A DNA stretch of 64,000 nt from positions 13,440 to 77,439 of the forward strand of contig BTVV01000018.1 of assembly GCA_045863855.1 (NCBI GenBank). The letters run 5' to 3'. The translations under genes were made by a program, and so were the position numbers. This document shows, in pieces, positions 21,848 through 51,648 of the stretch. The notes below the pieces were generated by a model. The model did not search any database. It was not told where the DNA came from and saw only the letters and a program-made list of their open reading frames with translations. The stretch's first letter is position 1, and every line of letters begins with the position of its first letter. Source of the stretch: Planctomycetota bacterium. Its GTDB lineage: Bacteria; Planctomycetota; SZUA-567; H5-PLA8.

Positions 21848-22855
21848 ATGGACGGGATGCCCTCTCACTCGAACGCTTCGCCCCGACCCGCGCGCACACG
21901 GTTTCGCTTCACACTGGCCGACCTGCTGCTTTTCGCCGGGTTGTGCGGATTGGCCTTGGCCCTGGTGGAACCACTGATCGCGCAGGGCTTTGGGACGCCA
22001 CCCCAAGATCGCTCGAACGCGGTGGCCTTGGTCCTGATCCTCACCGCCGCCGGGGCATTCATCGGCGTCTGGCGCTCGCGCATGAAATTGGAGAAGGCCG
22101 AGTCGAGCGTGGTGGAAGTCGTCGCCTACGTGGCGATCGCTTGGGCTTGGAGTTTCGCGTTGTACCGCTGGAACTGGATCGACGGTTTCTATGCAACTTT
22201 GGTGGCTATACCGGGCTTCGCACTCGCTTGGTGGGTAAGTGCGAAATTGGAGCTTCGGGGCGAATGGCATGTAGTAGCAATACTTACCTGTCAAATTTTT
22301 CTCCTTCCGGTGGCCAATTTTATTGCTCACCCTGCCTACCGAGTTTGGACGCGGCATCGAGTGAGTGGCTGGCAAGAATACGCTGTTATTGATGCGTGCA
22401 AGACCTACGCCGAGGCTCAGGATATTTATCGTCGCGTGGACTACGACGAGGACGGCGTACGGGAGTACGCGCTTGCAGGCATCGGCGACTACTCGCTCTA
22501 CGAAGTTCATCGCGGTCAAGGCGATCTGACCCTCATTGACGCGGCCATGGCCCAAGCGTTTGCGGGTGTGCAACCCAAAGCGGGGTACTTCTATAAGATC
22601 CTAACCGCGCAAGGACCTGCGGCGTACAACGGAGCACTCAACTACCTTGAAGAAAGCGAAGATGGCCAAGAGAACTTGGTGAATGGATACGCCATGGTGG
22701 CGTGGCCCGCGACCTATTGCGTATCGGGGAAAGATACCTTCATAGTCAGCCACCACGGCACGGTCTACCAAAAAGACCTGGGCCCCAACACCGCCAACCT
22801 CGTCGCCGCCATGTCGGAGTTCAACCCTGACAGCACGTGGGTGGTCAGCGAGTAG
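21848..22855 (+). CDS. DUF2950-domain protein with N-terminal multi-TM region
   Basis: GYFYKILTAQG, GYAMVAWPA.Y..SG..TFIVSHHG.VYQKDLG, FNPDSTW; about 5 TM helices at the N-terminus. Confidence 0.8.
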   Translation: MDGMPSHSNASPRPARTRFRFTLADLLLFAGLCGLALALVEPLIAQGFGTPPQDRSNAVALVLILTAAGAFIGVWRSRMKLEKAESSVVEVVAYVAIAWAWSFALYRWNWIDGFYATLVAIPGFALAWWVSAKLELRGEWHVVAILTCQIFLLPVANFIAHPAYRVWTRHRVSGWQEYAVIDACKTYAEAQDIYRRVDYDEDGVREYALAGIGDYSLYEVHRGQGDLTLIDAAMAQAFAGVQPKAGYFYKILTAQGPAAYNGALNYLEESEDGQENLVNGYAMVAWPATYCVSGKDTFIVSHHGTVYQKDLGPNTANLVAAMSEFNPDSTWVVSE

Positions 22856-22911
22856 ACTCCAGCTTGCAAGATTCAGGTTTCCCGCAGGTGCCGATCCGCT
22901 AATCTGATCGC

Positions 22912-23541
22912 ATGGCGAACGAACAGGATTCTCGTCTCTGCCACACATGCATAGCGCCTGTGCCGCACCGGCGCTACATCGAAGCCACCTATTGGTTGTG
23001 CCCAGCCTGCCATGAAATCTTCCTCTGGGGCCGTGGTCGTCTAACGGAGTACTTGGGAGTTGAGCCCTTAAGCATGACTCCGCGCACGAAGTTCGACGAT
23101 GAATACGGAATAGGTTCTGTGGATCTGGTGGAAATCCTGCTTGAAGTCGATGAGCGTTATGGAGTGTGGATACCCTGTGACTTGGGCATTCCGGGCCGTA
23201 CGGTTGGAGACGCCATCGCCTACATCCGCAATCAGCAAGTTAAGCGAAACGACCTTTATTGCGTATTGGTGGATGATAACAGCCGCAACCGCGACGAGGC
23301 AACTCGCTACGAGCACGGACGATTCGCGGACCGTAACACGGCTCTTACCATCGCTCGAACTATTGTAGACCACTCTCTTGCTCGGCTCCAGCAGACCGGT
23401 ATGACCCCAAACGCTTGGTTAAAAGCCTATCGTCAATTCGGGCTAAGCCCATTCATCGTATGTAATGAAGTTGGACCCATTTTTTCCTCGGAGAACTATG
23501 CCGAGAAGGCCGTTCATACGCACGGAACCGGACACAACTGA
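22912..23541 (+). CDS. Zn-ribbon + acyl-carrier-protein-like + unknown domain fusion
   Basis: CHTC...CPAC; 'DEYGIGSVDLVEILLEVDERYGVWIP...TVGDAIAYI' resembles an ACP; third segment VLVDDN...PFI. Confidence 0.55.
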   Translation: MANEQDSRLCHTCIAPVPHRRYIEATYWLCPACHEIFLWGRGRLTEYLGVEPLSMTPRTKFDDEYGIGSVDLVEILLEVDERYGVWIPCDLGIPGRTVGDAIAYIRNQQVKRNDLYCVLVDDNSRNRDEATRYEHGRFADRNTALTIARTIVDHSLARLQQTGMTPNAWLKAYRQFGLSPFIVCNEVGPIFSSENYAEKAVHTHGTGHN

Positions 23542-27394: not shown

Positions 27395-29374
27395 TCAGAC
27401 GCCGGACGAAGAACCTTTCTCCGACATGACTTCGCGCAGCTTCTGGAGCAGGCTGCGCGGACTAAACGGCTTGGGCAGGAACTGCACGCCCTGCTTGATC
27501 ACGCCTTCGCGGACAATCACATTCTCGGTGTAGCCCGAGATGAACACGACCTTCAACTGCGGCATCGATTTTCGTAAATCCTGGGCCAGATCCATCCCGC
27601 TCATATGCGGCAATACCACATCGGTGATCAGCAAATCGATCGCGCCCGGATGTTCCCGGACCAGCTTCAACGCCTGCTCGCCCGAACCGGCTTGCAGCAC
27701 ACGGTAGCCGCCTAACTCCAGCGCCTCGATGGCCATCTGGCGTAACGCTTGGTTGTCCTCGACGATCAGCACGGAAAGGCCCGGCGAAGGCTCGGCGACG
27801 GCGACGCGTTCTTCCTCCTCCGTGGCCACGGCACCCACATGGCGCGGGAGCAGGATGCGGAAAACCGCGCCCTGACCCACGGCGCTCTCGACTTCGATGT
27901 GCCCTCGATTCTGCTTCACGATCCCGTACACCGACGCCAGCCCCAACCCGGTGCCGCGCCCGACGCCCTTGGTGGTGAAGAACGGCTCGAAGAGGAACGG
28001 CAGGAAATCGGCCGGGATGCCTTGTCCGGTATCGGTGATGGTCATCTTCACGTACTGGCCCGGCAGCAGGTGGTCACGCGACTGGGCTTCCGATTCTTTC
28101 AAGGTCACGTTGGCGGTCTCGATCGTCAGCTTTCCGCCAGCAGGCATCGCATCGCGCGCATTGATGGCCAGATTCAGGACCACCTGCTCGAACTGTCCGG
28201 GATCGATCAATACCGGCGCGAGCGCGGGATCGGGCAGGATCGCCAGTTCGATCTGCTCGCCCAGCAGCGGGCGCAGGATCTGGCTGATCCGGCCGAGCAG
28301 GTCGTTTACGCTGGACACACGGGGCTGAATGATCTGCTTGCGCGCGAAGGCGAGAAGCTGCTTGGTGAGCGACGCGCCGCGTTCGGCCGATGCGCGCATC
28401 TCGCCCACCAAGCGGCGCTCGCGGGGCCGCTCGGCCAGTTGCGTCTCGACCAGTTCGGCGTTGCCCATCACCACCGTCAGCAGGTTGTTGAAATCGTGCG
28501 CGATGCCGCCGGCCAGCCGGCCCACACTCTCGAGCTTCTGCGCGTGCAGGAGATGCGATTCGAGTTCCCGGCGCTTGGTCACGTCCATCACCGTCCCCAG
28601 CATCTTCTGAGGTTTGCCCGACGAACCGAAGAACGCCTGGCCGTGCGCCGCCAGCCAGCGCAGCGGCAAATCCGGATTCTCGAGCCGGAATTCGAAATCG
28701 AAGCGGTCGCGCCCGTCCTTGCGTTCCAGTGCGTCGCGGACGGCGCGTTCCACCTGGATACGGTCCTCGGCGTGAACCAGCATCAGAAACTCGGTGAAAC
28801 TCGTGGAAGCCGTGGACGTGCGGAAAAGTCCGCAAGCTTCTTCGGAGAAGTTTATTTTGCCTTCTGGCACCAGCCATTGCCAAGTGCCCATGCTGGACGC
28901 CTGCAGCGCCAGACTCAGTTGCTCCTGGCGCTCGCTTAACTGCTCCTCGGCGCGTTGGCGCTCGCGGACTTCCCGTTCCAGATTTGCGTTGATCTCCTCA
29001 AGCCTCGGCAGCCGCAGCGCCCGGGGCAGCACGGGAATCAGCGAAATCACCGTGATCCACGAGACCGTAGCGGTGCAGGCTTTGATCACCCCGTTGAAGC
29101 GGTAAGCCGGATACCAGAACATCAACGCTTCGATCAGGTGTCCCAGGCCGCAGAACAGAATGAACGCGCCGAAAGCCCAGAAAATGCGGTGAAACGGGAC
29201 GTCCCGGCGCCGGATCACGAAATACGCAATGAGTGCCGGGATCGTGAAGTAGGCGCCGAAGATGAGCAGATCGGAGACGATATGCAGCCAGCCGTGCCCT
29301 TCCGTCCACGCTCCGCATTGCCAGCGCGCGGGAAAATCGCTCGTATCGAACAGTTTATCGATGAAGTCCAGCAT
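27395..29374 (-). CDS. Hybrid histidine kinase: ETR1-like ethylene-binding TM domain - PAS - HisKA - HATPase - REC
   Basis: [13 protein letters not shown]...[13 protein letters not shown]-box AHDFNN; NARDAM, DTGQG, GTGLGL; receiver LLITDVVLP...KPF. Start moved to 29374, downstream of GGGAGG. Confidence 0.9.
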
Positions 29375-29482
29375 AGGGGCCTCCCGGTGCGAGAGGGGCG
29401 CGGAGGATGCCCCTCTTGGGTTCATAGCTGCTATTGCATTGTGTTAATCGGAGCCAGAATAGTACCTGGATAATTTACCTGC

Positions 29483-29560: not shown

Positions 29561-29983
29561 TCATTGGGGCGGCTTGCCGGGCAACGCACAGGTTCCCGAA
29601 ATGCGGTAGCGATTCGAAGCCACCCAGCCGTACGCGCGGGTGAACAGCCCGTAGATGCCCGGACAACCGAATAGAATGCCCAAGGGCCACAGATACCAGA
29701 TGCGCCGAAAGAGAAACAAGTAAGCGTCCGCGCCGTTGTACTGCTCTCCCTCCACGCTCAGGACCCTAAAGGTGGCGATGACTTCTTCCTTCGTGAGCCC
29801 TAATCGTTCGGCCACCCACGGCGCTTGAAGGGGTTCGCAGACGAACCCGCGCTTTTCCAGCGCTCCGCGCGCCACCCGCAGGCACTTGAGGCAAAAGCCG
29901 CAGGAGCCGTCGTAAAGCACCCAACCCGTGCGCGCAGAAGGCTGCGTACTCGGGGCCACCGGAGCTTGAAGCGTTTGCGCCAT
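29561..29983 (-). CDS. DCC1/DUF393 thiol-disulfide oxidoreductase family protein
   Basis: YDGSCGFC (DxxCxxC), GADA, Y.WVA.NRY. Confidence 0.88.
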   Translation of the reverse strand: MAQTLQAPVAPSTQPSARTGWVLYDGSCGFCLKCLRVARGALEKRGFVCEPLQAPWVAERLGLTKEEVIATFRVLSVEGEQYNGADAYLFLFRRIWYLWPLGILFGCPGIYGLFTRAYGWVASNRYRISGTCALPGKPPQ

Positions 29984-30171
29984 ACCACTCTAAAGATAAC
30001 CGCGCGCGGTCGGTTTCCAAACTTTGATATGCTAAGTCGAGAATTGACAGGTGCTTGAATTTCAACTTCACACTCTATTCGGGCATGCTATAAGCATCGC
30101 TCGTGGGTGGGAACGACTTCCCCCTGCCGCTTGTCGAATCGGAAAACCTCAGGCAAAGAGAGGAGCCCCAC

Positions 30172-30693
30172 ATGGCTCAGGAACGCACCGGTGTGATCAC
30201 GTTCAAAGGCGGCCCGCTGACGCTGGTCGGCCCGGAATTGAAGGTCGGCGACAAGGCGCCCGAGTTCAGCGTCGTGGACGGCGGCTTGGCCGAAGTGACG
30301 CTCAAGAGCAGCGCCGGCAAGACGCGGTTGATCAGTGTCGTCCCGTCGCTCGATACACCCGTCTGTGACCAGCAGACCCGCAAGTTCAACGAAGAGGCCG
30401 CGAAACTGCCCGGCAATGTGGCGGTGATCACCGTCAGCGTCGACCTGCCGTTCGCGCAGAAGCGCTTCTGCTCCACCGCCGGCATCGAGAAGGTCCAGGT
30501 GGTCAGCGACTACAAGACCCGCGATTTCGGACACAAGTACGGGCTGTTCATCAAGGAGTTGGCGTTGCTCACGCGCGCGGTTCTGGTGGTCGGCGCCGAT
30601 GACAAGATCAAGTACCTCGAAGTGGTCAAGGAAGTCACCAGCACCCCCGATTACACCAAGGCGCTGAACGCCGCCAAGACCGCGGCCAGCTAG
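30172..30693 (+). CDS. tpx: Thiol peroxidase Tpx
   Basis: PSLDTPVC, SVDLPFAQKRFC, RAV; AGGAG RBS before ATG 30172. Confidence 0.95.
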   Translation: MAQERTGVITFKGGPLTLVGPELKVGDKAPEFSVVDGGLAEVTLKSSAGKTRLISVVPSLDTPVCDQQTRKFNEEAAKLPGNVAVITVSVDLPFAQKRFCSTAGIEKVQVVSDYKTRDFGHKYGLFIKELALLTRAVLVVGADDKIKYLEVVKEVTSTPDYTKALNAAKTAAS

Positions 30694-30729
30694 CCCCTCG
30701 TACGAAACAACCATTGGGAGGATACATCC

Positions 30730-31365
30730 ATGAGCGAAGGACCATGCGGCATCCGCGCGCCCCAGGTGGGCAGCGCGGCTCCGGCGTTTAGCGGTTCGTC
30801 CGTGGTGGGCACTCAGTTCGCGGACCTCAAGTTCGAGGGCGGCGTGCTGAACGTGGGCGGCGAAAGCTTCAAGGGTAAGTGGACGGTGCTGTTCTTCTAC
30901 CCGCTCGACTTTACCTTCGTCTGCCCGACGGAAATCATCGCGTTTCACGAGCATCTAGCGAGCTTCGAGAAGCTCAACACGAAGGTCGTGGGCGCCTCGA
31001 TCGACAGCCAGTTCACGCACCTGGCCTGGAAGAAAACGCCGCGCAAGGACGGCGGCTTGGGCGAGATCGGCTTCCCGCTCCTCGCCGACGTGACCAAGAA
31101 CGCTTCGCGCGACTACGGCGTGCTCCTGCCCGGCGGCGTCGCGGCGCGCGGCGTCTTCATCATCGACGACAAGGGCATCCTGCAATCGTGCACCGTCAAT
31201 AACCTGGGCGTGGGCCGTAACGTGGAGGAAATTCTCCGCACGCTCGAAGGGTACCAGTTCGTGGCCAAGCACGGCGAAGTCTGCCCGGCCAACTGGAAGC
31301 CCGGCGCAGCGACCATGAAGCCCGATCCGGAAGGCTCGAAGGACTACTTCAAGACGGTCAAGTAA
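30730..31365 (+). CDS. ahpC: 2-Cys peroxiredoxin AhpC/Prx1
   Basis: FYPLDFTFVCPTE, GGLG, GEVCPANW. Confidence 0.95.
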   Translation: MSEGPCGIRAPQVGSAAPAFSGSSVVGTQFADLKFEGGVLNVGGESFKGKWTVLFFYPLDFTFVCPTEIIAFHEHLASFEKLNTKVVGASIDSQFTHLAWKKTPRKDGGLGEIGFPLLADVTKNASRDYGVLLPGGVAARGVFIIDDKGILQSCTVNNLGVGRNVEEILRTLEGYQFVAKHGEVCPANWKPGAATMKPDPEGSKDYFKTVK

Positions 31366-31569: not shown

Positions 31570-32616
31570 GTGAATCAAGACGAAGTCGACCGCTCCGAAA
31601 CCGACCTCGTGGTGCTCGACAACGAGCCGTCCTGGCGGGAGTTCCAGGAACGCGCGCTGCGCCGGGCGGGTTTTCGCCAAGTCGTCGCGTACCCCGGCAA
31701 GTCACAGCACCTCGACGAATACCTGAACCACGGCTCCGGCCGCAAAGCCGATCTCGTCGTCTTCGGAATCCAGCCCGACAACGACGGCTGCTGGGAACAC
31801 CTCCGCGCGATCCGCCAGTTCTACGAAGGCCCGCTCCTCGCGACCACCGAACGCAACCGAGCCGGCCTGCGCGACCGCGTCATCGACTTGGGCTGCGCCG
31901 ATTGCCTCTCCATGGGCGAGTACGGCGAAGAAGGCCTCGAACTTAAGGTCGATACCGTCCTCGCCGCGCACCGCATCAACTCGATGATCGACGAGAACGA
32001 CCACCGCAATCAGCGTCTCTTTGTCAACATCCTCACCGTGATGGTCAAGATCCTCGAGTCCAAGGACCCGTACACGCGCTTCCACAGCCATTCGGTGGCG
32101 CTCTGGTCGCGCATGATCGGGCGCAAAAAGGGCCTGAGCGAAGAAGAATTGATCCGCTTGGGGCTGGCCGCGGTCTTTCACGACTTCGGGAAGATCGGCA
32201 TCCCCGAGGAGATTCTCAATAAGCCCTCGCGCCTCACCGACGAAGAGTTCGAGGTGATGAAGCAGCACCCCACCATCGCGCGCGATCTGCTCTCGTCGCT
32301 CGATCTGCTCCACGATCTCTTGCCGGCCATTACGCACCACCATGAACGCTGGGACGGGCGCGGCTATCCGGCTTCGCTGCGCGCCGAAGATACGCCGCTG
32401 TGGGCGCGCATCATCTGCATCGCCGACGCCTACGACACCATGGCCAGCCGCCGCACCTACAAGGACCCCATGCCCACCGAGCGTGTCATCGAGGAACTCA
32501 AGAAGGGGCGCGCGCAGCAGTTCGACCCCGAACTCGTCGATATCATGCTCGAAATTCTCGCCGAGCGCGAAGCCGAGGCGCAAGCGCAAGGCGCGCCGGG
32601 GAACGGGAAGAAGTAA
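31570..32616 (+). CDS. HD-GYP phosphodiesterase with degenerate N-terminal receiver domain
   Basis: KDPYT..HS, HDFGKIGIP, HHERWDGRGYP, ADAYDTM, QFDP. Confidence 0.9.
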   Translation: MNQDEVDRSETDLVVLDNEPSWREFQERALRRAGFRQVVAYPGKSQHLDEYLNHGSGRKADLVVFGIQPDNDGCWEHLRAIRQFYEGPLLATTERNRAGLRDRVIDLGCADCLSMGEYGEEGLELKVDTVLAAHRINSMIDENDHRNQRLFVNILTVMVKILESKDPYTRFHSHSVALWSRMIGRKKGLSEEELIRLGLAAVFHDFGKIGIPEEILNKPSRLTDEEFEVMKQHPTIARDLLSSLDLLHDLLPAITHHHERWDGRGYPASLRAEDTPLWARIICIADAYDTMASRRTYKDPMPTERVIEELKKGRAQQFDPELVDIMLEILAEREAEAQAQGAPGNGKK

Positions 32617-41711: not shown

Positions 41712-42221
41712 TTACAGGACGCACGAAGCGACCGCCTCGTCCATCGAGCGGTGCTCGCGGCGCTGGACCTCGTACTGCTCCTTGAGCGCCGTAAGGTAAA
41801 GCCAGCGGCGCTGGGATGGCTCGGCCCTGCGGTCCACCCGCACAGCGGCCGCGATTTTCGCGCGTAACATGCCCAGCGGAACGGGCTTAGGCAAGAAGTC
41901 GTAGGCCCCCGATTCCATTGCCGCCCGGGCGATCGAATCGTCTTCGGTGGCGCTGAGGAACAGGACCGGCAGGTCTGCGGTCTTCGGATCGTCCTTTAAG
42001 AATCGGCAGGCCGATACACCGTCCAGTTGCGGCATGTGGACGTCCATCAGGACCACCCCAACATCGAAATGCGCCTTGCGAAGCACCTCCCGCCCGTCGC
42101 GCGCCAGCAGCACCGGATAGCCGTCGTCTTCCAGCATCGAACGTAAAATCTCGCGGTTGTCGTCCTCGTCGTCGACGATCAGCACCACAGGTTTCAAATC
42201 GATCAGGTCGGTGGGTCGCAT
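41712..42221 (-). CDS. Response regulator (REC + short C-terminal helix)
   Basis: IVDDE, LMDVHMP, FLSA, PKP. Confidence 0.88.
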   Translation of the reverse strand: MRPTDLIDLKPVVLIVDDEDDNREILRSMLEDDGYPVLLARDGREVLRKAHFDVGVVLMDVHMPQLDGVSACRFLKDDPKTADLPVLFLSATEDDSIARAAMESGAYDFLPKPVPLGMLRAKIAAAVRVDRRAEPSQRRWLYLTALKEQYEVQRREHRSMDEAVASCVL

Positions 42222-42255
42222 AATTGAAACTCCTTGCCGCGCGCCGCGGGGCCGA

Positions 42256-43101
42256 TCAGGCCACACACTCCACAGCGTCGCTGCGCTTGATGCCGAGCAA
42301 CTGGCAGGCCTGTTCGACCAACTGTTCGGGGTCGAAGGGTTTGGCCACGATACCTTTCACTTCGGGGTGACCGGCGTAGCGTTCCATGCTCAAGCCGGCG
42401 GCATACCCGGTTACCAGAAGAATGGGCGGCAACTTTTCGCCGGCGTGCTGCTCTTCCAGGCTCTCGATGACTTGATCGGCAATATCTTCCTCTAATGCGT
42501 AATCCAGCAGCACCAGATCGAATTTCTTTTTGAGACTCAATTCGAGCGCCGCGGCGGCCGTGGCCGCACCGCGCACTTGGAATCCCGCGGACTCGAACGC
42601 CAAAGAGAGCAGATCGCGCACGTCGGGGTCGTCGTCCACCACCAAGACTTTCTTCATGTTCAGGACACACGTCTCGAGCACTTCCTGACGCGGCAGGGTT
42701 TCGACCAAGCTTTCGGCCAGCAGATCGTCCACCTTTTTGCGCAGCACGCACAAATCGAGCGGCTTAAAGAGAATCTCCTGCACATTAACCATGCGCTGGA
42801 CGGCCGCTACTTCTTCGTCGTCCTGATCCATGCCCGTGATCACCAGCACCGGAATATCCATAATGGGAATGCGCTGCTGGCCGATCGTCGCCTGACTGGC
42901 CCGGCGCAACGCCGCCGAACCCGTGCATTGCGGAAGATTCAAATCGGTAATGACGAGATCGAAGGGATGCAAACTCAGCTCATCCGTAAGCGCCTGTCCG
43001 TCCGCCACGATGGTCACGTCGTAGCGAGCACTCAAAGCCGAATGCAGGACCACTCGCAGCGATCGGTTATCGTCTGCCACCAGAATGCGTTTCCGTTCCA
43101 T
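42256..43101 (-). CDS. Tandem dual-receiver protein
   Basis: Two REC domains (ADD..ITDLNLP..TG..KP; VDD..LLDY..TG..KP). Confidence 0.88.
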   Translation of the reverse strand: MERKRILVADDNRSLRVVLHSALSARYDVTIVADGQALTDELSLHPFDLVITDLNLPQCTGSAALRRASQATIGQQRIPIMDIPVLVITGMDQDDEEVAAVQRMVNVQEILFKPLDLCVLRKKVDDLLAESLVETLPRQEVLETCVLNMKKVLVVDDDPDVRDLLSLAFESAGFQVRGAATAAAALELSLKKKFDLVLLDYALEEDIADQVIESLEEQHAGEKLPPILLVTGYAAGLSMERYAGHPEVKGIVAKPFDPEQLVEQACQLLGIKRSDAVECVA

Positions 43102-43499
43102 GATAGTGTCTCCCTGGAAAGGCCCAGCTTCCGTGTCGGAATACCGGTAAACACATCCCAGGCCAATCCCCGGAACCGTCTAAATCTCATGGTAGTAAAG
43201 AGTTAAAATTTGATCCTTCGATCGGGTGTCCGACGCTTCGGATTGGGCGCCTGCGATAGAGATTCTTAGTTGTCCTGATTTACGGAATTCCAAGATGGGA
43301 GATGCACCAGAGCACTTCCGACTTTCTGTCTATAAGCCGTCGCGGGTCCGCGAAATAGCTCCGACGAATCATAGGACTCGTGCTTGCTTCGTTGCTGTCC
43401 ACGTTTGTATAGTGCACTTGGGTCATTTCATTATATGGCTTTGTATGGTGTTGAGGCACCCACATATAGTGGGGTGGGCCATCGGAGCGGCAAGCGGAT

Positions 43500-44936
43500 A
43501 TGGCGTCTGCCCAAGAAATAGTCGTCGTGGACGACGAGACCGATATCCTGGCGCTACAGGAAGCCACGCTGAGCGTGGCCGGCCTGCATGCCAGAACCTT
43601 TTCCAATCCGCTTGAAGCGTGGGAGTACATTCGGCAGAACCGTCCTCGGCTGGTGATCTCCGATTGGGAGATGCCCGGTCTTTCGGGCATGGATCTGCTT
43701 TTTAAAACCCGCGGCCTTCCGGTCGCGCCGTATGTGATCATCTTGACCGGCTTCGGTTCGGTCGATCGCGCCGTGCAGGCGCTGAAGATGGGCGCGTTCA
43801 GCTTCCTTGAAAAGCCCTTCGATCCCGAGAAGTATCTGGAACTGGTTCAGTCGGCGCTCGACATGGTTCCGCCTGGCGCCGGAGATCTGCGCAAGACGCG
43901 CGCGTACGCGACGTCTACCGCCGGCGACGATCCGAAGGAACCGATCGTACGCAGCCCTAAAATGAAGCGCGTGCTCGAAATGGTGCGCGCCGCCGCGCCG
44001 ACGGACAGCAACGTGTTGCTGCTGGGCGAATCGGGTACCGGCAAGGAAGTCGTAGCCGACTACCTGCATGCTTGCAGCGCCCGCTCACGCGGGCCGCTGG
44101 TCAAGGTCAACTGCGGGGCGCTGCCCGAACACCTGATGGAATCGGAGCTGTTCGGGCATGAGAAGGGCGCGTTCACGGGCGCCGACCGGCGCCGCGTGGG
44201 ACGCTTCGAACTGGCGCACAACGGCACGCTTTTCCTCGACGAGATCGGCGACCTGCCGCTTCCGCTTCAAGTCAAATTGCTGCGCGCGCTGCAGGAGCAT
44301 GTGATCGAGCGCGTGGGATCGAGCGCTTCGGTGCCCACGGATTTCCGGCTTGTCAGCGCCACACACAAGGACCTGGCGGGCGGTGTCGGCGAAGGAACCT
44401 TCCGCGAAGATTTGTATTACCGCATCAACGTCGTTCCAATCCGTCTGCCTGCGCTGCGTGACCGCCCCGAAGACGTGGAGCCGCTGGCGCAGTACTTTTT
44501 CTCCGAACTGACGCAGAAACTACCGCGAAAGCCGCAAACCATATCGCAGGAAGCACTGGATTGCTTGCGGGCTTTCGCGTGGCCCGGGAACGTGCGCCAG
44601 TTGCGCAATGCCATCGAGTACGCGCTGGTGATGTGCCTCGGCGATTCGATCGGCGCGGAGCATCTACCTGAAGAACTGCGCACCGATCGGACGCAATGCG
44701 CGCCGGCGGCCGACGCTTCGGCCAGCCGCCAGACTGCCGTGGGGGCAAGCCCGTCCCTCCCCGTCGCCGAAGGCGGCCTGCAGGATACGCTCAAGAATGT
44801 GGAATCCGATTTGATCCGCCAAGCGCTCGATCGCCACCAATGGAATGTGACCGAAGTGGTGCGTGAACTGAAACTCAGCCGCTCCGCTTTGTACGAACGC
44901 ATGAAGCAGTACGGAATCAAGAGGCCAGACGCTTGA
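43500..44936 (+). CDS. NtrC-family sigma54-dependent response regulator
   Basis: REC; GESGTGKE, ESELFGHEKGAFTGA, LFLDEIG, FREDLYYR, WPGNVRQL; Fis-type HTH. Confidence 0.95.
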   Translation: MASAQEIVVVDDETDILALQEATLSVAGLHARTFSNPLEAWEYIRQNRPRLVISDWEMPGLSGMDLLFKTRGLPVAPYVIILTGFGSVDRAVQALKMGAFSFLEKPFDPEKYLELVQSALDMVPPGAGDLRKTRAYATSTAGDDPKEPIVRSPKMKRVLEMVRAAAPTDSNVLLLGESGTGKEVVADYLHACSARSRGPLVKVNCGALPEHLMESELFGHEKGAFTGADRRRVGRFELAHNGTLFLDEIGDLPLPLQVKLLRALQEHVIERVGSSASVPTDFRLVSATHKDLAGGVGEGTFREDLYYRINVVPIRLPALRDRPEDVEPLAQYFFSELTQKLPRKPQTISQEALDCLRAFAWPGNVRQLRNAIEYALVMCLGDSIGAEHLPEELRTDRTQCAPAADASASRQTAVGASPSLPVAEGGLQDTLKNVESDLIRQALDRHQWNVTEVVRELKLSRSALYERMKQYGIKRPDA

Positions 44937-46870
44937 ACACTCCCGCCGCGAAGCCCACGCGCGTATTGCTGATCGAAGACCAGGCGCTGGACAGCCGATG
45001 GGTCGTCGAGGCGCTGAAGCGGGTCGCGCCAGGATGTTTTGAGACCCACGTGGCCGAAACGCTGCGCGAAGGGCTGGCCTGCTTGCAGACTTTCGAGCCG
45101 AACGTTGTATTGACCGATCTGTCCCTGCCGGACAGCCACGGACTGGATACCTGCCTTCAGGTCCTGGACGGCGCGCCGCACCTTCCCCTCGTAGTCCTAA
45201 CCTGCAACAACGACCAATCGCTGGCCCTGGAAGCCGTTCACGCCGGAGCGCAGGGGTATCTGGTCAAAGGCGAATCCAGTCCGGATGTGCTGGTGCGGAC
45301 GATCCGTTATGCGATCGAGCGCAAGCGCATCGAAGATCAGTTGCGGCAAGAACGCGACCGCATGCAACTGTACCTCGAGACCGCGCATACGTTCATGCTT
45401 GCCCTGGATTGCGAGGGGCGCGTAACGATGCTCAATCGCGTCGCGCAGGAAGTCCTGGGTTACAAGGAGCGCGATCTACTGGGACAGGATTGGTTCGAGA
45501 CTTGTGTGCCCGTATCGTTCCGCGCGCGGCTACGCCAGGATTTTACGCGCATGCTCGCCACCAAGGTGGTCCACAACGGGCGCTACGAGTCGCCGGTATT
45601 GACCCGGGACGGCCAGGAACGTCTCTTCGAATGGCGCTGCGGCTTGCTACTCGACGCGCAGAACCAACCCACCGGCTGCCTCAGTTCGGGACAGGACATT
45701 ACGGACCAGAAGCAACTCGAGAATCAGCTTTTCATGGCCCAGAAGATGGAAGCGGTGGGGCAACTGGCGGGCGGCGTGGCGCACGATTTCAATAACCTCA
45801 TGACCGTGGTCACCGGGTATAGCGCGCTGCTGCTCAAACAGTTGCCGGCCGACCATCCGCACCGCTCGTCCATGGAAGCGATCGCCCGCGCTGGCCAGCG
45901 CGCCGCGACGCTCACGCGGCAGTTGCTCGCCTTTTCGCGCAAGCAGGTCATCGCGCCGCAGGTGCTGGACCTGAATGCGTGCATGGCCGAATCCGAGAAG
46001 ATGCTGCGCCGTCTGATACACGAAAGCATCGCACTGGTCACGAAATTCGAGCCCGACTTGTACCCCGTTTTCGTGGATCCCACCCAAATCGAGCAGATCG
46101 TGCTCAACCTGGTGGTCAACGCGCGGGACGCCATGCCCAAAGGGGGCACGCTGGAGTTGGAGACCGCCAACGTAACGTGGGACGCGGCCTACGTGCGCAA
46201 ACACCCCATGGCCAGCCCCGGCGATTACGCCATGCTGGGCGTCTCCGACACCGGCCATGGCATGGACGAACGAACCAAGGCGCGGATCTTCGAGCCCTTT
46301 TTCACCACCAAGGAGCGCGGCCAAGGCACGGGCCTGGGACTCTCGACCGTATACGGCATCGTGAAACAAAACCGCGGGTTCATCTGGGTCCAAAGCGAGC
46401 CCGGGCGCGGAACGTCGTTTAAAATCTATTTTCCGCGCTGCCAACCCGGAGGCAAGAAGTTCGAAAGCCGTACGGCCATGGCGGCGGTTCGCGGCGGGCC
46501 TGAAACGATTCTCGTGGTCGAGGACGAACAGTGGGTCCGGGAACTGGTCGAGAAGATCCTGCGCGAACAAGGCTATCGCGTACTCAGCGCCTGCGACGGA
46601 GTCGCCGCGCTTGAAGTGGCAGGGCAGCACGACGGCCCGATTCACCTGCTAGCCACCGATGTGGTCATGCCGCGCATGGGCGGCCCCGACCTCGCCCGCG
46701 AACTGGTCAAGGAACGGCCGGAAACTCGCGTGCTTTACCTCAGCGGATACGCCGACAACGCCCTGTTCAACCAAGGCATACTGCAGGAGGGGACGCATCT
46801 GCTCGAAAAGCCGTTCCCGCCCGAAGCACTCGCGAGCAAAGTGCGCAGTATTCTCGAAAGCAGCGAATAA
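44933..46870 (+). CDS. Cytoplasmic hybrid histidine kinase REC-PAS-HisKA-HATPase-REC
   Basis: AHDFNN H-box, NARDAM, DTGHG, GTGLGL, two receivers; TTG start overlaps the upstream stop. Confidence 0.92.
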   Translation: MNTPAAKPTRVLLIEDQALDSRWVVEALKRVAPGCFETHVAETLREGLACLQTFEPNVVLTDLSLPDSHGLDTCLQVLDGAPHLPLVVLTCNNDQSLALEAVHAGAQGYLVKGESSPDVLVRTIRYAIERKRIEDQLRQERDRMQLYLETAHTFMLALDCEGRVTMLNRVAQEVLGYKERDLLGQDWFETCVPVSFRARLRQDFTRMLATKVVHNGRYESPVLTRDGQERLFEWRCGLLLDAQNQPTGCLSSGQDITDQKQLENQLFMAQKMEAVGQLAGGVAHDFNNLMTVVTGYSALLLKQLPADHPHRSSMEAIARAGQRAATLTRQLLAFSRKQVIAPQVLDLNACMAESEKMLRRLIHESIALVTKFEPDLYPVFVDPTQIEQIVLNLVVNARDAMPKGGTLELETANVTWDAAYVRKHPMASPGDYAMLGVSDTGHGMDERTKARIFEPFFTTKERGQGTGLGLSTVYGIVKQNRGFIWVQSEPGRGTSFKIYFPRCQPGGKKFESRTAMAAVRGGPETILVVEDEQWVRELVEKILREQGYRVLSACDGVAALEVAGQHDGPIHLLATDVVMPRMGGPDLARELVKERPETRVLYLSGYADNALFNQGILQEGTHLLEKPFPPEALASKVRSILESSE

Positions 46871-46873
46871 GGG

Positions 46874-47233
46874 TTACGAAGCGACTTGAGCGAGCTGGTT
46901 CTTCACCTCTTGAACCAACGCATCGAACTCGATGGGTTTGGTCAAGACGGGGCAGTCCACGCCCGCCAGCTCACCGCTGGCGGTGCCGGTAACGAAGATG
47001 AATCGGCCGCGCAACTCCGGACGCGACTGGCAGATGCGATGGTACAGTTCGAGCCCGTTCAGCCGGGGCATGTCAAAATCCGTAACCACCACCTGCCACT
47101 CGCCTTTAGCCAATAGCTCCAATGCACCCTGGCCGTCGATCGCTTCCACGAGTTCCGCATTAAGCGGAGCAAGCAAGGAACGAATCAGGTTGCGAATGTC
47201 GGTGTTGTCTTCGACCACCAGAATGCGCGACAT
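46874..47233 (-). CDS. Single-domain response regulator
   Basis: VVEDN, VTDFDMP, VTG, TKP. Confidence 0.88.
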   Translation of the reverse strand: MSRILVVEDNTDIRNLIRSLLAPLNAELVEAIDGQGALELLAKGEWQVVVTDFDMPRLNGLELYHRICQSRPELRGRFIFVTGTASGELAGVDCPVLTKPIEFDALVQEVKNQLAQVAS

Positions 47234-47592
47234 GAACGAAACCCGTGGCTGAGCGGTATGCAAAATCGTTGCGGGTTCATTTTGTTTCACGTTTCATCCG
47301 TTGCAAGCGATTCCCGTGGTGGATGGTCGATAAATAGCAATATCGCGGATTTGTGCGTACGAGCTGCAACGAGCGCGTGAGCAATAGGCGCCCAGGATCA
47401 GATGGAGCCGGTTTGTGAAAACGATATATTTGTTGCGCCGCGCAACTCGGTGCAGCACCCATGCAATCACTCATAAATAACCTATTATTATACTAATTTA
47501 CTTGCGTAAGCACGATGTGAAGGTAATTATGGTAAAGCGTTAAACGAAACACGCCGCGCAGCCACCAACTAGAAGGTAAGTGGAGAAGCGCT

Positions 47593-50500
47593 ATGCTTTC
47601 ACACCCTCCAAATCACAATGTTCATATCGACAGTAGTCTGCATGTAGTGATGCTGGTGCTGCTGGCAATCTCTTTCACGATGGCCGCCCCAAGCGCTCAC
47701 GCCGGCTCTGCCAACTTAGAAATCACCAGCATTAGCGATGCGCCCGATCCCTTCGCCGGAGCAGGCGGAGCGCCCTGGATCATGAATGCTCAGGTTCGCT
47801 ATCCGGTGATCCTGCCTAGCCGGCAAGGCGGTGTGCTCAGCAACGCGACCGAAGTGTATGTGCTGACCGAGTTGCAACGCTCGAACGGCTCGACGGTACA
47901 GACGTTGGAGTCGAGCTTTCCGGCCGATCGCCGCCCGGGACAGCCCGTGGGCAGCGCGGTACAGGCGGTCGTGCATTCCTGGAACGGGACGGACATCAAC
48001 GGGCAAGCGCTCCCGCCGGGCCGATATAATTACACGGTTCGCGCCTATTTGGTGGAAACGCTCACCATACGCGTGCTGCGGTTTACCATTCGAATTACGG
48101 TCGTGCTCATGACCAGCTCTCCGCGCAGCGGAACGGTGGAGATCCGCGCGGGCGATACGCAGGCGCCTACGATCACGCCGCTCGCTCCGTCCGACGGCGC
48201 GTGGTTGGCCCAGGCCCAACCCGCGATCTCCGCCGCATTCGCCGATGTGGGCAGCGGCGTGAATCCCGCCTCGGTCTCCGTCTGGCTGGATGGCGTGGCG
48301 CGCAGCGTAAGCGCGAACGCCGGCGGCTTCAGCTTCACGCCCCCCGCGCCGCTGTCCGATGGCCGCCACGACGTTCGCGTCGAACTTCGCGACCTGGCCG
48401 GCAATCCGGCTGCGGCGCAATGGAGCTTCTATACCGATACGGCGGACCCGGTGGTTTCCGGCATGGCACCCGCGGCCGATGCGTGGACGAACAGCCGGAA
48501 CCCGGCGCTGGCCGCAAGCTTCGGCGATCCCGCGCCGGGATCCGGCATCGATCCGGCGTCGATCCGCGTCTTCCTCGATGGCGCGGATCTTTCCGCGAAC
48601 GCCACGGCATCGGGCTTCGCCTTTAATGCTCCGGTACCTTTAATGGACGGTCCGCATACGTTGCTGGTGCAGCTGGCCGACCGGGTCGGTCATGCGGTCA
48701 CGGCCGCACGGAGCTTTTTCGTGGACGCCACCGCGCCGGTCTTCGCGGACCTCTCGCCCGCGAACGGCGCGCTGGTGCCGGACGGCGATCCGGTCCTATC
48801 CGGGAGCTTTTCCGACGGCGGCAGCGGCATCGATGCGAACAGCTTCGCGTTGCGGCTGAACGGCTCGTCCATCGCCGCGACGCTGAGCCCCGACCGCTTC
48901 ACCCATACGCCGCTTTCGTGGCTCGAGGACGGCCTGTATCAGGCCGAGGCCGAAGTGCGCGACGCGGCCGGAAACCGCGGCCTCGCGGCCTGGTCGTTCC
49001 GCATCGATACGCGCGCGCCGGTCATCACGAACTTGATGCCGGCCGGTGGCGGCTGCACGAACGATCCGCGTCCGGTCTTTTCAGCGGTATTCGGCGATGC
49101 CGAGTCGGGCAGCGGGATCGATCCGGCGCGCACGCGCGTGTTGCTGAACGGATCGGATGTAACGGAACAAGCCCAAGTGCTGGCCGGGGGCTTCGTTTTC
49201 CAGCCGGCCGAGCCCTTGCCCGACGGCGTGCACGGCCTGCGGCTGGAAATTTACGATCGCGCCGGCCACTCGGCCGCGGCAGAGACGTCCGTCGAAGTCG
49301 ACACCACGCCCCCGCCGGCGCCGGTGATCGATCAGGTGGTCCGCACGGCCGACCGCGTGACGGTCTCGGGCGATTCGCCGCACGACGTCGTGGCCATCCT
49401 GGCCACGGCCGACGGCGCGATCGTCGAAAGCGCGATCATCGCGAGCTTCGTGGTGGTGTTCGCAAAGGATGGGCAGGAGACCTTCGACTTCTCCTTGCGC
49501 TTCCGCGATTGCGCGGGCAATGTCGGACCGGCCACGTCGGCACAGGAGAGCTTCCTGAGCGATCCGAGCGGTCCTCCCTTGGCATTCCAGAGCGCGGGGC
49601 TCCTGATTCCGTCGGGCAAGAAGCGCGTGGACCGCAACGGGACGATGTTCACCAACAGCACCACGATCACCGCGCGTTTCGCGCTCAGCGGCGGAACCGC
49701 GCCGTACTTCGCGACAGTCAACGGCATCGAAGCCGAGCCCGTGGGTTCGCTGGGCTCGGTGTACGAGGTCACCTTCGCCGGACTCCCCGAAGGAGCGCAC
49801 ACGTTCACGCTCCAAGCCACCGACACGTCCGACCGGACCGTGGAAACGAACCTCGAAGCGTTCGTGGACCTGACGCCGCCCGTGCTGCGGATTCGAAGCG
49901 CGACGCGCACCTTCCCCCTGGACCACCTGATCACCAACCAGGCTTGGCGCTTCTGCGAGGTTTCGGGCGAAGCCGGCGACGATGCTTCAGGCCCAGCCAC
50001 GGTGCAGGTGGATATTTTCTGCTGCACTGATTTCGAATTGAGGCGCGAGACGCTGATTCTGGACCCGGCGAATCCCATGGCGTGGTTCGCCACCTCGGTG
50101 GGCATCGGCGGAGCCGAGCGCCAGTATCCCGTCACGGTGCGTCTCTTCGACGCGCTGGGCAACAGCGTGAGCCAATCGTTCGCCATCGAACTCGATACGC
50201 ACAAGCCCGGCGTGGATCCTTTCGAACCGGGCGCCGGCAACGGCCATCTGCTCCCGTACGGGCACACCGACGGCTGGCTGCAGACCGACACGACGGCTTG
50301 GGGCGATGCCCATGCCTATATCCCGCCCGATTCGGGTACGCCGGTGGCGACGATCCCGCTCCCGCTGACTTCGACGCGCTACCTCCTGGTGCGGCGCGAA
50401 CAGAGCCTCGGACCGGTGTGCGTGACGGTACCCGTGGCCGACCTGGCCGGAAATACGGGCGATCTGATCGTGCATTTCGAGGAACTGCAGATCGAAAACA

Positions 50501-51648
50501 TCACCGCGAGCGCCGCTTCGCCGCTGGTGCTGGTGCCCGCCGGACCTCCCGAATTGCGCCGCGAACACGCCGAAGAGCAGATCCGCAACGCGCTGCGTCT
50601 GGACATCTTGGACCGCGCCGTATTCCTCTTCCAGTCCAACTCGGCGCAAAGCGCGGCGTATGAACTGTCCATGCCCGTCCGGGGCGAGATCGACAACACC
50701 CACAGCTTCCTGACTCGCGGGCAATTGGTTTTCCTGCGCACCAACGGGAACCCCGACACGGCCGACATTCACAACCTGGATCTCGAAGCCTTCGCGATCG
50801 ACGGACTCGACATCGCATCCTCTACGCGCTGGCTGGGTCCGCCGCTGGAAATTCCGCACACGCTCTCGATCACGGCGCGCGTCACCTTCGACGGCGCGGA
50901 CCTGACCGTGACCGAAGCGGTGAACTTCTACATCACCGCCTCAGGGCCGGGGCCGGCCTTCGAGGACGGCGTGCCCACGTTCGACCGTGCTTCGCGCGTC
51001 AGCCCGGGCACGCTGGTACTGCCGCGCGAAGACGAGGATGAAAAGCTGGTGGAAGTCTTTATCGCCGCTCAGCTCGGTACGGCCCCGGAGTCCTACTTCC
51101 CGTATATCGACGGCTTGGAAGTGGTCAGCGCCGACGGCACGCAAGGATCCGCCATGGTACGCTTGCTGCCCAGCCGAGGTACGCCCAACGAAGAGGGATA
51201 CGTGGAAGGTTCGCCCACCGGACTTCTGCCAGTCATGGGCGCCCCAGAGATGCTGAACGTGGTCAGCGTCCGGCCCAGTCAACTGGAGCCCGGCACCAAG
51301 ATGACGCTCACGATCTCCGGCGGCGACTTGCCCGATGCGAACCGGCCCATAGGACCGTTCGACTACGCGGACGACGAAGAGTTGTGGACGCGGCTGGAGC
51401 GCCAGGATCTGGCGGGCAGCTTCGGATTCGAGCGCAGCGTGGGCGACCTGCCGCCACCGGGCGCCGATTCGGCAATCGAAGTCCTGCGCGTCCGCGTGCG
51501 CAAAGATCCGCGCGTGTACACCTCGCTGGGGCACGTGGACCTGGAAGTGCTCGTCGGCGCCGATGTGCCGCAGGGCCTCTACGACCTTGTCGTGCCGCTG
51601 AAAGCCGGCGGAACTCTACGGCTGCCGCACGTCTTACGCGTGCCCTAG
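47593..51648 (+). CDS. Large secreted Ig-like repeat protein (FlgD-like N-terminal domain)
   Basis: Signal peptide (AHA); WNGTD..GQALPPGRY FlgD-Ig motif; multiple DT.AP...D.AGN Ig-like repeats. Confidence 0.8.
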   Translation: MLSHPPNHNVHIDSSLHVVMLVLLAISFTMAAPSAHAGSANLEITSISDAPDPFAGAGGAPWIMNAQVRYPVILPSRQGGVLSNATEVYVLTELQRSNGSTVQTLESSFPADRRPGQPVGSAVQAVVHSWNGTDINGQALPPGRYNYTVRAYLVETLTIRVLRFTIRITVVLMTSSPRSGTVEIRAGDTQAPTITPLAPSDGAWLAQAQPAISAAFADVGSGVNPASVSVWLDGVARSVSANAGGFSFTPPAPLSDGRHDVRVELRDLAGNPAAAQWSFYTDTADPVVSGMAPAADAWTNSRNPALAASFGDPAPGSGIDPASIRVFLDGADLSANATASGFAFNAPVPLMDGPHTLLVQLADRVGHAVTAARSFFVDATAPVFADLSPANGALVPDGDPVLSGSFSDGGSGIDANSFALRLNGSSIAATLSPDRFTHTPLSWLEDGLYQAEAEVRDAAGNRGLAAWSFRIDTRAPVITNLMPAGGGCTNDPRPVFSAVFGDAESGSGIDPARTRVLLNGSDVTEQAQVLAGGFVFQPAEPLPDGVHGLRLEIYDRAGHSAAAETSVEVDTTPPPAPVIDQVVRTADRVTVSGDSPHDVVAILATADGAIVESAIIASFVVVFAKDGQETFDFSLRFRDCAGNVGPATSAQESFLSDPSGPPLAFQSAGLLIPSGKKRVDRNGTMFTNSTTITARFALSGGTAPYFATVNGIEAEPVGSLGSVYEVTFAGLPEGAHTFTLQATDTSDRTVETNLEAFVDLTPPVLRIRSATRTFPLDHLITNQAWRFCEVSGEAGDDASGPATVQVDIFCCTDFELRRETLILDPANPMAWFATSVGIGGAERQYPVTVRLFDALGNSVSQSFAIELDTHKPGVDPFEPGAGNGHLLPYGHTDGWLQTDTTAWGDAHAYIPPDSGTPVATIPLPLTSTRYLLVRREQSLGPVCVTVPVADLAGNTGDLIVHFEELQIENITASAASPLVLVPAGPPELRREHAEEQIRNALRLDILDRAVFLFQSNSAQSAAYELSMPVRGEIDNTHSFLTRGQLVFLRTNGNPDTADIHNLDLEAFAIDGLDIASSTRWLGPPLEIPHTLSITARVTFDGADLTVTEAVNFYITASGPGPAFEDGVPTFDRASRVSPGTLVLPREDEDEKLVEVFIAAQLGTAPESYFPYIDGLEVVSADGTQGSAMVRLLPSRGTPNEEGYVEGSPTGLLPVMGAPEMLNVVSVRPSQLEPGTKMTLTISGGDLPDANRPIGPFDYADDEELWTRLERQDLAGSFGFERSVGDLPPPGADSAIEVLRVRVRKDPRVYTSLGHVDLEVLVGADVPQGLYDLVVPLKAGGTLRLPHVLRVP
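48154..49299 (+). repeat. Four tandem 94-98 aa Ig-like coding repeats (ABAB)
   Basis: Units start at 48154, 48436, 48724 and 49006 (DTQAP, DTADP, DATAP, DTRAP). Confidence 0.8.

Follow-up and report, generated by a model that had tools for sequence, protein, structure and literature searches.

The minus strand of the 64,000-nucleotide (nt) stretch of DNA analyzed here (the window) carries, at 27395 to 29374, a gene for a membrane-bound hybrid sensor histidine kinase of 659 amino acids (aa), called P0001, that its sequence identifies as a real, intact, and well-supported ETR1-type receptor kinase. We think it probable that P0001 is a dimeric Cu(I) ethylene receptor in which an Asp35-Lys98 link would pass the signal through helix 3 and the PAS domain to His293, from there to Asp585, and then to an unlinked Hpt protein. 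The ETR1-type family is already catalogued in Pfam and is partly characterized, and a noncyanobacterial receptor with the order ethylene-binding domain (EBD)-PAS-kinase, AzoEtr1 of Azospirillum brasilense Sp7, is already known (PMC11819568).

The gene and its protein

The open reading frame (ORF) track contains a 676-aa open frame (27395-29425, minus strand), from which ATG 29374 gives the 659-aa protein. We prefer ATG 29374 as the likely translation start over the upstream in-frame ATG 29425 because it is preceded by a GGAGG that is kept in the ortholog of the closest relative (locus L007), where ATG 29425 is replaced by TTG. In most related loci, matches to P0001 begin at its residues 1 to 4. 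Adding 17 to a P0001 residue number gives the ORF-track number. The features, all on the minus strand, are as follows.

27395..29374 (-): hybrid sensor histidine kinase gene, 659 aa (P0001); ORF, Pfam matches, L007 ortholog, dN/dS of 0.092 for the whole gene
29380..29384 (-): Shine-Dalgarno-like GGAGG, 5 nt before ATG 29374
29315..29317 (-): Cys20 in the N-terminal PxRWxCGxW motif; candidate intersubunit disulfide residue, from conservation and the model interface
29009..29296 (-): ETR1-type EBD, aa 27-122, PF25487 ETR1_N
29210..29302 (-): membrane helix 1, aa 25-55, with D35, Y42, I45, and P46 (ETR1 D25, Y32, I35, and P36); AlphaFold2 model and hydropathy
29123..29191 (-): membrane helix 2, aa 62-84, with I72, C75, and H79 (ETR1 I62, C65, and H69), the predicted Cu(I) site; model and conservation
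29012..29104 (-): membrane helix 3, aa 91-121, with K98, T101, S105, and P117 (ETR1 K91, T94, S98, and P110); model and mapping
28928..29002 (-): cytoplasmic helix, aa 125-149, at the end of the modeled part, with a putative signaling role; model
28589..28798 (-): PAS_3 domain, aa 193-262; 43.8 bits versus a cutoff of 25.6
28334..28522 (-): HisKA domain, aa 285-347, with phospho-acceptor H293 at 28496-28498; Pfam and motif
27842..28204 (-): HATPase_c domain, aa 391-511, with N, G1, F, and G2 boxes; Pfam and motif
27437..27772 (-): receiver domain, aa 535-646, with D585 at 27620-27622 and K635; Pfam Response_reg and motif

The PAS_3, HisKA, HATPase_c, and Response_reg matches were all above the Pfam cutoffs, and Pfam found no GAF domain in P0001. 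The motifs of the kinase and receiver (H293, the N, G1, F, and G2 boxes, D585, and K635) are unbroken. Together with the model, these matches give the layout EBD-coil-PAS-HisKA-HATPase-REC, anchored in the membrane. A sequence-only reading of this DNA had claimed an EBD-PAS-HisKA-HATPase-REC architecture, and all five domains are indeed over their Pfam cutoffs; the ORF, the motifs, and the ORF-track residues D52, Y59, I62, P63, I89, C92, and H96 are also as it described them. The planctomycete origin that it proposed agrees with the nearest named record, a Planctomycetota MAG, whose ortholog (L007) is equal in length to P0001 and shares 95% amino-acid identity over 659 aa; the DNA identity of the two genes is 92.4%.

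Among NCBIfam models, the best match was to CckA-type PAS-HisKA-HATPase-REC kinases (NF046020 and NF046026), which covered aa 194-650, and P0001 has an H-box (HDFNN) and an F-box (FFTTK) like those of CckA-type kinases. We rejected the possibility that P0001 is CckA itself because NF046020 scored 416.6 bits versus an equivalog cutoff of 1000; the region is a CckA-like module. The source genome contains 15 kinase regions with at least 40% identity over at least 200 aa, that of P0001 included. Because 14 others are so similar, the output half of P0001 appears to be generic.

The ethylene-binding domain and its known relatives

PF25487 (ETR1_N) matched P0001 with 128.4 bits versus a cutoff of 27 (E = 1.3e-37; model positions 2-97 of 97), which upholds the ETR1-type family membership claimed from the letters. 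The match was the only one in the source genome, and there were none in 14 control genomes (0/14). All seven ETR1-type binding residues are present (D35, Y42, I45, P46, I72, C75, and H79); the ETR1 list to which they correspond draws in part on PMC10266040, PMC8879215, and PMC6586836.

The closest comparison is with AzoEtr1. When plasmid records were searched with aa 1-140, 19 of 72,556 matched, 7 of which were from Azospirillum. Among these was an A. brasilense Sp7 gene (L022:5001-6578) encoding a 525-aa EBD-PAS-kinase (P0122), which we take to be AzoEtr1 because its length is the one given in PMC11819568. The alignment of P0001 with AzoEtr1 is gapless from aa 1 to 122 (42% identity across 125 aa), and D35, Y42, I45, P46, I72, C75, H79, K98, and C20 have identical numbers in both; in both, the three-helix domain is followed by PAS and then by the histidine kinase. 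According to the available text of PMC11819568, AzoEtr1[1-130] shows saturable binding of 14C-ethylene, the D35A and C75A variants fail to complement, and D35, C75, H79, and K98 of AzoEtr1 are the equivalents of D25, C65, H69, and K91 of ETR1. Because the match to this receptor is gapless, there is good reason to predict a Cu(I)/ethylene function for P0001.

If the analogy with ETR1 and AzoEtr1 holds, Cys75 and His79 would bind Cu(I), Asp35 would polarize His79, and ethylene, and probably similar small alkenes too, would bind to the copper. On ligand binding, the Asp35-Lys98 link would shift helix 3 and the signaling helix, which, via the PAS domain, would set the autophosphorylation of His293. 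The phosphate would then move from His293 to Asp585, to an unlinked Hpt protein, and on to a regulator, which is the least certain step.

The two proteins also differ. AzoEtr1 has no receiver domain, whereas P0001 is a hybrid kinase with one; the AzoEtr1 stop codon is overlapped by a gene for a single-domain regulator (PMC11819568), whereas P0001 has no adjacent regulator. The N-terminal motif is L-P-H-G-x-C in AzoEtr1 but P-x-R-W-x-C in P0001, and S82 and W84 of AzoEtr1 are E82 and L84 in P0001.

The sequence-only reading had called for alignment with the known receptors and had claimed a constant offset of 27, without gaps, between its numbering and that of ETR1. The alignment with AzoEtr1 was direct, and ETR1 was compared via AzoEtr1 and the published numbering. 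The offset holds for helices 1 and 2 but not for helix 3, where it is 24 in ORF-track numbers: ETR1 K91 maps to AzoEtr1 K98 (PMC11819568), which is K98 here, so the helix-3 offset in P0001 numbers is 7, not 10. By this mapping ETR1 would have three extra residues before helix 3, and the same offset makes T101, S105, and P117 the probable equivalents of ETR1 T94, S98, and P110, residues tied to signal transmission (PMC6586836). The helix-3 output residues K98, T101, S105, and P117 are conserved in P0001, as is F71. G78 sits at the position of ETR1 T68, and ETR1 T68A is described as retaining ethylene binding (PMC10266040).

P0001 thus resembles Arabidopsis ETR1 in its Cu(I) Cys/His pair, its Asp-Lys link, and its helix-3 Thr/Ser/Pro residues (as described in parts of PMC10266040 and PMC6586836). 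Both are hybrid kinases with a C-terminal receiver, and both are homodimers if the dimer modeled for P0001 is correct. ETR1 differs in having GAF instead of PAS and two N-terminal cysteines. The cyanobacterial receptors SynEtr1 (Slr1212) and GeiEtr1/2, compared here by the descriptions in the available text of PMC6682694 and PMC11819568, have the same domain, the seven residues, and one N-terminal Cys, which has been proposed as a disulfide residue in these receptors (PMC6682694). GeiEtr2 shares with P0001 both PAS and a C-terminal receiver. Unlike P0001, SynEtr1 and GeiEtr1/2 carry GAF domains, and SynEtr1 is described as being also a photoreceptor and as having its own regulator. In alignments, the cyanobacterial type was represented by an Acaryochloris homolog (L023; 42% identity).

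We modeled aa 1-150 with AlphaFold2 from an alignment of 69 rows. The model has helices at aa 25-55, 62-84, 91-121, and 125-149 (mean pLDDT, 92.8); the hydropathy peaks are at aa 30-55, 59-88, and 95-120. When two copies were modeled as a homodimer, the score was 0.75, and the best of three controls scored 0.00; among proteins of solved structure, the mark used for the dimer score is attained by 20 of 30 pairs and by 1 of 23 single chains. Contact agreement among the dimer runs was at least 96%, with pLDDT of at least 84. No solved structure resembling the domain was found by sequence or fold search at E ≤ 0.001, so it is unlikely that the dimer score reproduces a complex already solved. The modeled interface consists of residues 20-22, 35, 42, 45, 72, 75, and 98, plus 79 in one copy. 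It includes C20, which would suit a putative disulfide in the predicted dimer, and D35 contacts K98 of the opposite subunit. The model supports homodimer formation by the EBD, and an Asp35-Lys98 switch may act across the dimer. Modeling of the dimer and of its Asp/Cys/His geometry had been proposed from the letters; the model, which is copper-free and covers the contacts between subunits, leaves the site uncontradicted. The native arrangement of the receptor membrane domain is listed as open in the available text of a 2026 review (PMC13012798). Because the membrane domain is without a solved structure, compact bacterial members would be useful structural targets.

Conservation of the domain was assessed by a protein search with aa 1-135, which gave 131 matches among 344 candidates; 120 of these homologs are listed. 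All seven residues are present in 113 of the 120 listed homologs, and in 106 K98 is present too. C75 and H79 are each found in 120/120. The EBD is under purifying selection, and no part of the gene is more constrained: dN/dS versus L007 comes to 0.035 within aa 1-122, compared with 0.107 elsewhere. These data bear on the idea that the membrane domain is a retained dimerization or anchoring module and that the true input comes via PAS. The 14 similar kinase regions elsewhere in the genome, and the joining of the domain to many different cytoplasmic parts, fit this idea. Against it stand the stronger constraint on the membrane domain than on the rest of the protein and the retention of the membrane-embedded polar residues D35, C75, and H79 in 119 to 120 of the 120 homologs listed, and we consider this explanation highly improbable.

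Distribution among bacteria and the PxRW subgroup

The survey of Planctomycetota suggested by the sequence-only reading showed that the domain is not rare: of 401 genomes sampled from the phylum, ETR1_N exceeded the cutoff in 50, from 39 of 280 genera, and 53 had a match at E ≤ 0.001. Among 31 related genomes, 6 had a match, both other members of the genus included. Within the family the distribution is patchy (5 of 16 other genomes, one of them below the cutoff). Of the 30 best-scoring loci from the phylum and family, 26 keep the seven residues. The 15 related loci are of planctomycete, verrucomicrobial, or myxobacterial origin. By hand count, about 48 of the 120 homologs listed have the PAS + HisKA + HATPase + receiver layout. 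One of them, P0056 of Aeoliella sp. SH292, which we take to be a planctomycete, has both the layout and the residues of P0001. P0001 is therefore not special among the bacterial members and adds a candidate but no new principle.

Many putative ethylene receptors have been reported across a wide range of bacteria (PMC6682694), and PMC10266040 covers 1,221 ETR1-related sequences, eukaryotic as well as prokaryotic; planctomycete names used as search terms gave no match in its supplementary file. We found no characterized planctomycete member in the literature searched, although broad surveys and their supplements may already name planctomycetes. If P0001 binds ethylene, a planctomycete with no evident plant link would join the cyanobacteria and the one plant-associated alphaproteobacterium in which ethylene perception is proven, and the same capacity would be shared by roughly one of every eight genomes sampled from the phylum.

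Other homologs carry the same membrane domain in front of different parts. It is fused to an HD domain in P0058, to kinases with PF07536 or PF07568 in P0006, P0017, P0079, and P0094, and to kinases with PF07730 in P0039 and P0041. By the look of these fusions, the ETR1-type membrane domain is a freely shuffled input module. A 1464-aa open frame in L011 was considered as a fusion to a pump and was rejected, there being no Pfam match ahead of ETR1_N. A split layout occurs in genome G007, of the same family: a stand-alone ETR1_N protein of about 190-210 aa with one long helix (L053:7497-8132, minus strand) has a stop codon that overlaps the open frame for a membrane-bound PAS-HisKA-HATPase kinase (L053:5878-7500, minus strand). 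This stand-alone protein would suit structural work as a minimal construct. In G001, of the same genus, an ortholog with the order EBD-PAS-kinase-receiver (L051:7090-9053, minus strand) lies at a different locus; its domain is 74% identical. Just ahead of the H-box of this ortholog, a run of Gs carries a 1-nt frameshift, which is either an assembly error or a real break.

The N terminus of P0001 belongs to a subgroup with the motif P-x-R-W-x-C-G-x-W (PxRW), in which R17 and C20 are found in 120/120 of the homologs listed. At that place AzoEtr1 and the cyanobacterial L023 have P-H-G-x-C; P15, R17, and W18 of the subgroup are M, H, and G in AzoEtr1. Position 82 is E or D in 120/120 of the listed homologs, S in AzoEtr1, and E in L023; W84, which AzoEtr1 and L023 share, is not a common residue in PxRW-type homologs. 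A tree was built from 67 of the 170 domain sequences collected, taking every sixth protein match and each locus apart from two frameshifted pieces of L021; its 59 PxRW-type sequences grouped at a support of 0.41 and 58 of them at 0.86. Because this support is weak and the sampling is biased toward the query's kin, the subgroup is defined by its motif and is not a proven clade. Both N-terminal forms coexist within the phylum, since some of its genomes (L024-L027, L041, and L005) carry the form P-H-G/R-x-C. No tested PxRW-type member was found in the literature searched.

The source organism has no evident plant link. Its 94%-complete genome had no match to TIGR01274 or PF00148 (ACC deaminase and the nitrogenase fold). 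It also had no match to PF02332 (alkene-type monooxygenase), but this blank is uninformative because none of the controls matched either. Sequences closely related to the P0001 gene were present in RNA libraries, of which 4 of 12 runs were compared with it: contigs from X1 and X2 (one bioreactor study) and from X6 (wastewater) span the greater part of the gene, membrane domain included, with roughly 90-93% identity, and X5 gave short pieces only. These contigs are the sequence of a relative, and DNA carryover is possible.

These observations raise the question of which ligand the copper site would serve. The site could be real and its ligand another Cu(I)-binding small molecule, such as propylene or another alkene, an alkyne, CO, an isocyanide, or an organosulfur volatile, with ethylene being one among several. 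ETR1 itself binds CO and other pi-acceptors. The outer face of the domain differs from that of AzoEtr1 throughout the subgroup, the domain reaches 39 genera that include lineages without an obvious plant link, and close relatives turn up in libraries from a bioreactor and from wastewater. For a model of a mouse olfactory receptor, organosulfur odorants are described as being sensed by a Cu(I) site of Cys, His, Asp, and Lys (PMC10266040). Against this, the residues known to matter for ethylene binding are all identical to those of AzoEtr1, the acidic residue 82 and G78 are present in the cyanobacterial L023 as well, and soil ethylene has microbial and abiotic sources (PMC11819568). On balance, a broader or different ligand is unlikely. 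A bolder version, which we regard as doubtful, holds that the PxRW subgroup of planctomycetes, verrucomicrobia, and myxobacteria, with its acidic residue 82 and its lack of W84, would detect some gas that is not ethylene through a Cu(I) site of the plant type, and its Asp-Lys switch would work across subunits. If so, bacteria would use the ethylene-receptor fold as a general copper-based gas sensor, and the plant hormone receptor would be one specialized form of it.

Neighborhood and possible signaling partners

Downstream, a gene for an FGGY carbohydrate kinase converges on the receptor gene. Upstream are a DCC1-like gene on the same strand and, on the opposite strand, genes for two peroxiredoxins and an HD-domain protein. 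The DCC1-like protein, with a CxxC-type motif, and the two divergent peroxiredoxin-family genes make up a thiol-redox group at 29561-31365.

This group suggests another role for the domain, namely, that it reports the Cu(I) loading of C75/H79 or the oxidation of C20 rather than a gas. In addition to the upstream thiol-disulfide protein and the peroxiredoxins, the invariance of C20 among the 120 homologs listed would fit such a role, as would the raised H2O2 sensitivity described for AzoEtr1 disruptants (PMC11819568). However, the closest relative (L007 and L052, one stretch counted once) is alone in having the redox genes beside the receptor gene, and none of the 17 other window genes tested recurs in the other 20 of 22 loci examined. 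Because the neighborhood is not conserved beyond the closest relative, we did not treat the redox neighbors as functional context. In addition, the hydrophobic residues Y42, I45, P46, F71, and I72 are kept, as expected of a gas pocket. We consider redox or copper reporting improbable, and return to the Cu(I) ethylene receptor as the preferred reading. Points that weigh against the preferred reading are the identity of only 42% to AzoEtr1, the outer-face differences of the PxRW subgroup, the lack of an evident plant link, the patchy occurrence of the domain within the family, and the frameshift in the G001 ortholog.

As had been noted from the letters, no cognate regulator is adjacent; the next Response_reg match is about 12.5 kb away. 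In the source genome, receivers were matched 77 times and Hpt domains 4 times; two of the Hpt matches are in short stand-alone frames, L057:1408-1785 and L059:1477-1974. The genome also has Cu-type P1B ATPases above the cutoff. Two candidate partners within the window were rejected. The HD-domain protein at 31570-32616 had no Response_reg match and no Asp at the usual phospho-acceptor place. A cluster of seven receivers at 41.7-47.3 kb has its own hybrid kinase, and there is no evidence linking it to P0001. Searches for promoter-like sites (1 versus 0.8 expected) and terminator-like sites (1 versus 2.8 expected) gave nothing usable.

Several other features of the window were recorded. The HD_5 protein at 31570-32616 (plus strand) has, by eye, a degenerate receiver-like N terminus and is 99.7% identical in the closest relative. 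The signaling cluster, at 41712-47290, has its seven receiver matches in single- and double-receiver proteins, an NtrC-type sigma-54 activator, and a REC-PAS-HisKA-HATPase-REC hybrid kinase whose kinase region is 51% identical to that of P0001. At 21848-23541 there is a DUF2950 membrane gene plus an acyl-carrier-like gene; in syntenic L052 the DUF2950 part is present (56% identity), but the acyl-carrier-like gene was not found, and thus this appears to be a variable spot in an otherwise syntenic stretch. At 47593-51648 (plus strand), a gene adjoining a heparinase II/III-like gene encodes a 1351-aa protein with several bacterial Ig-like domains.
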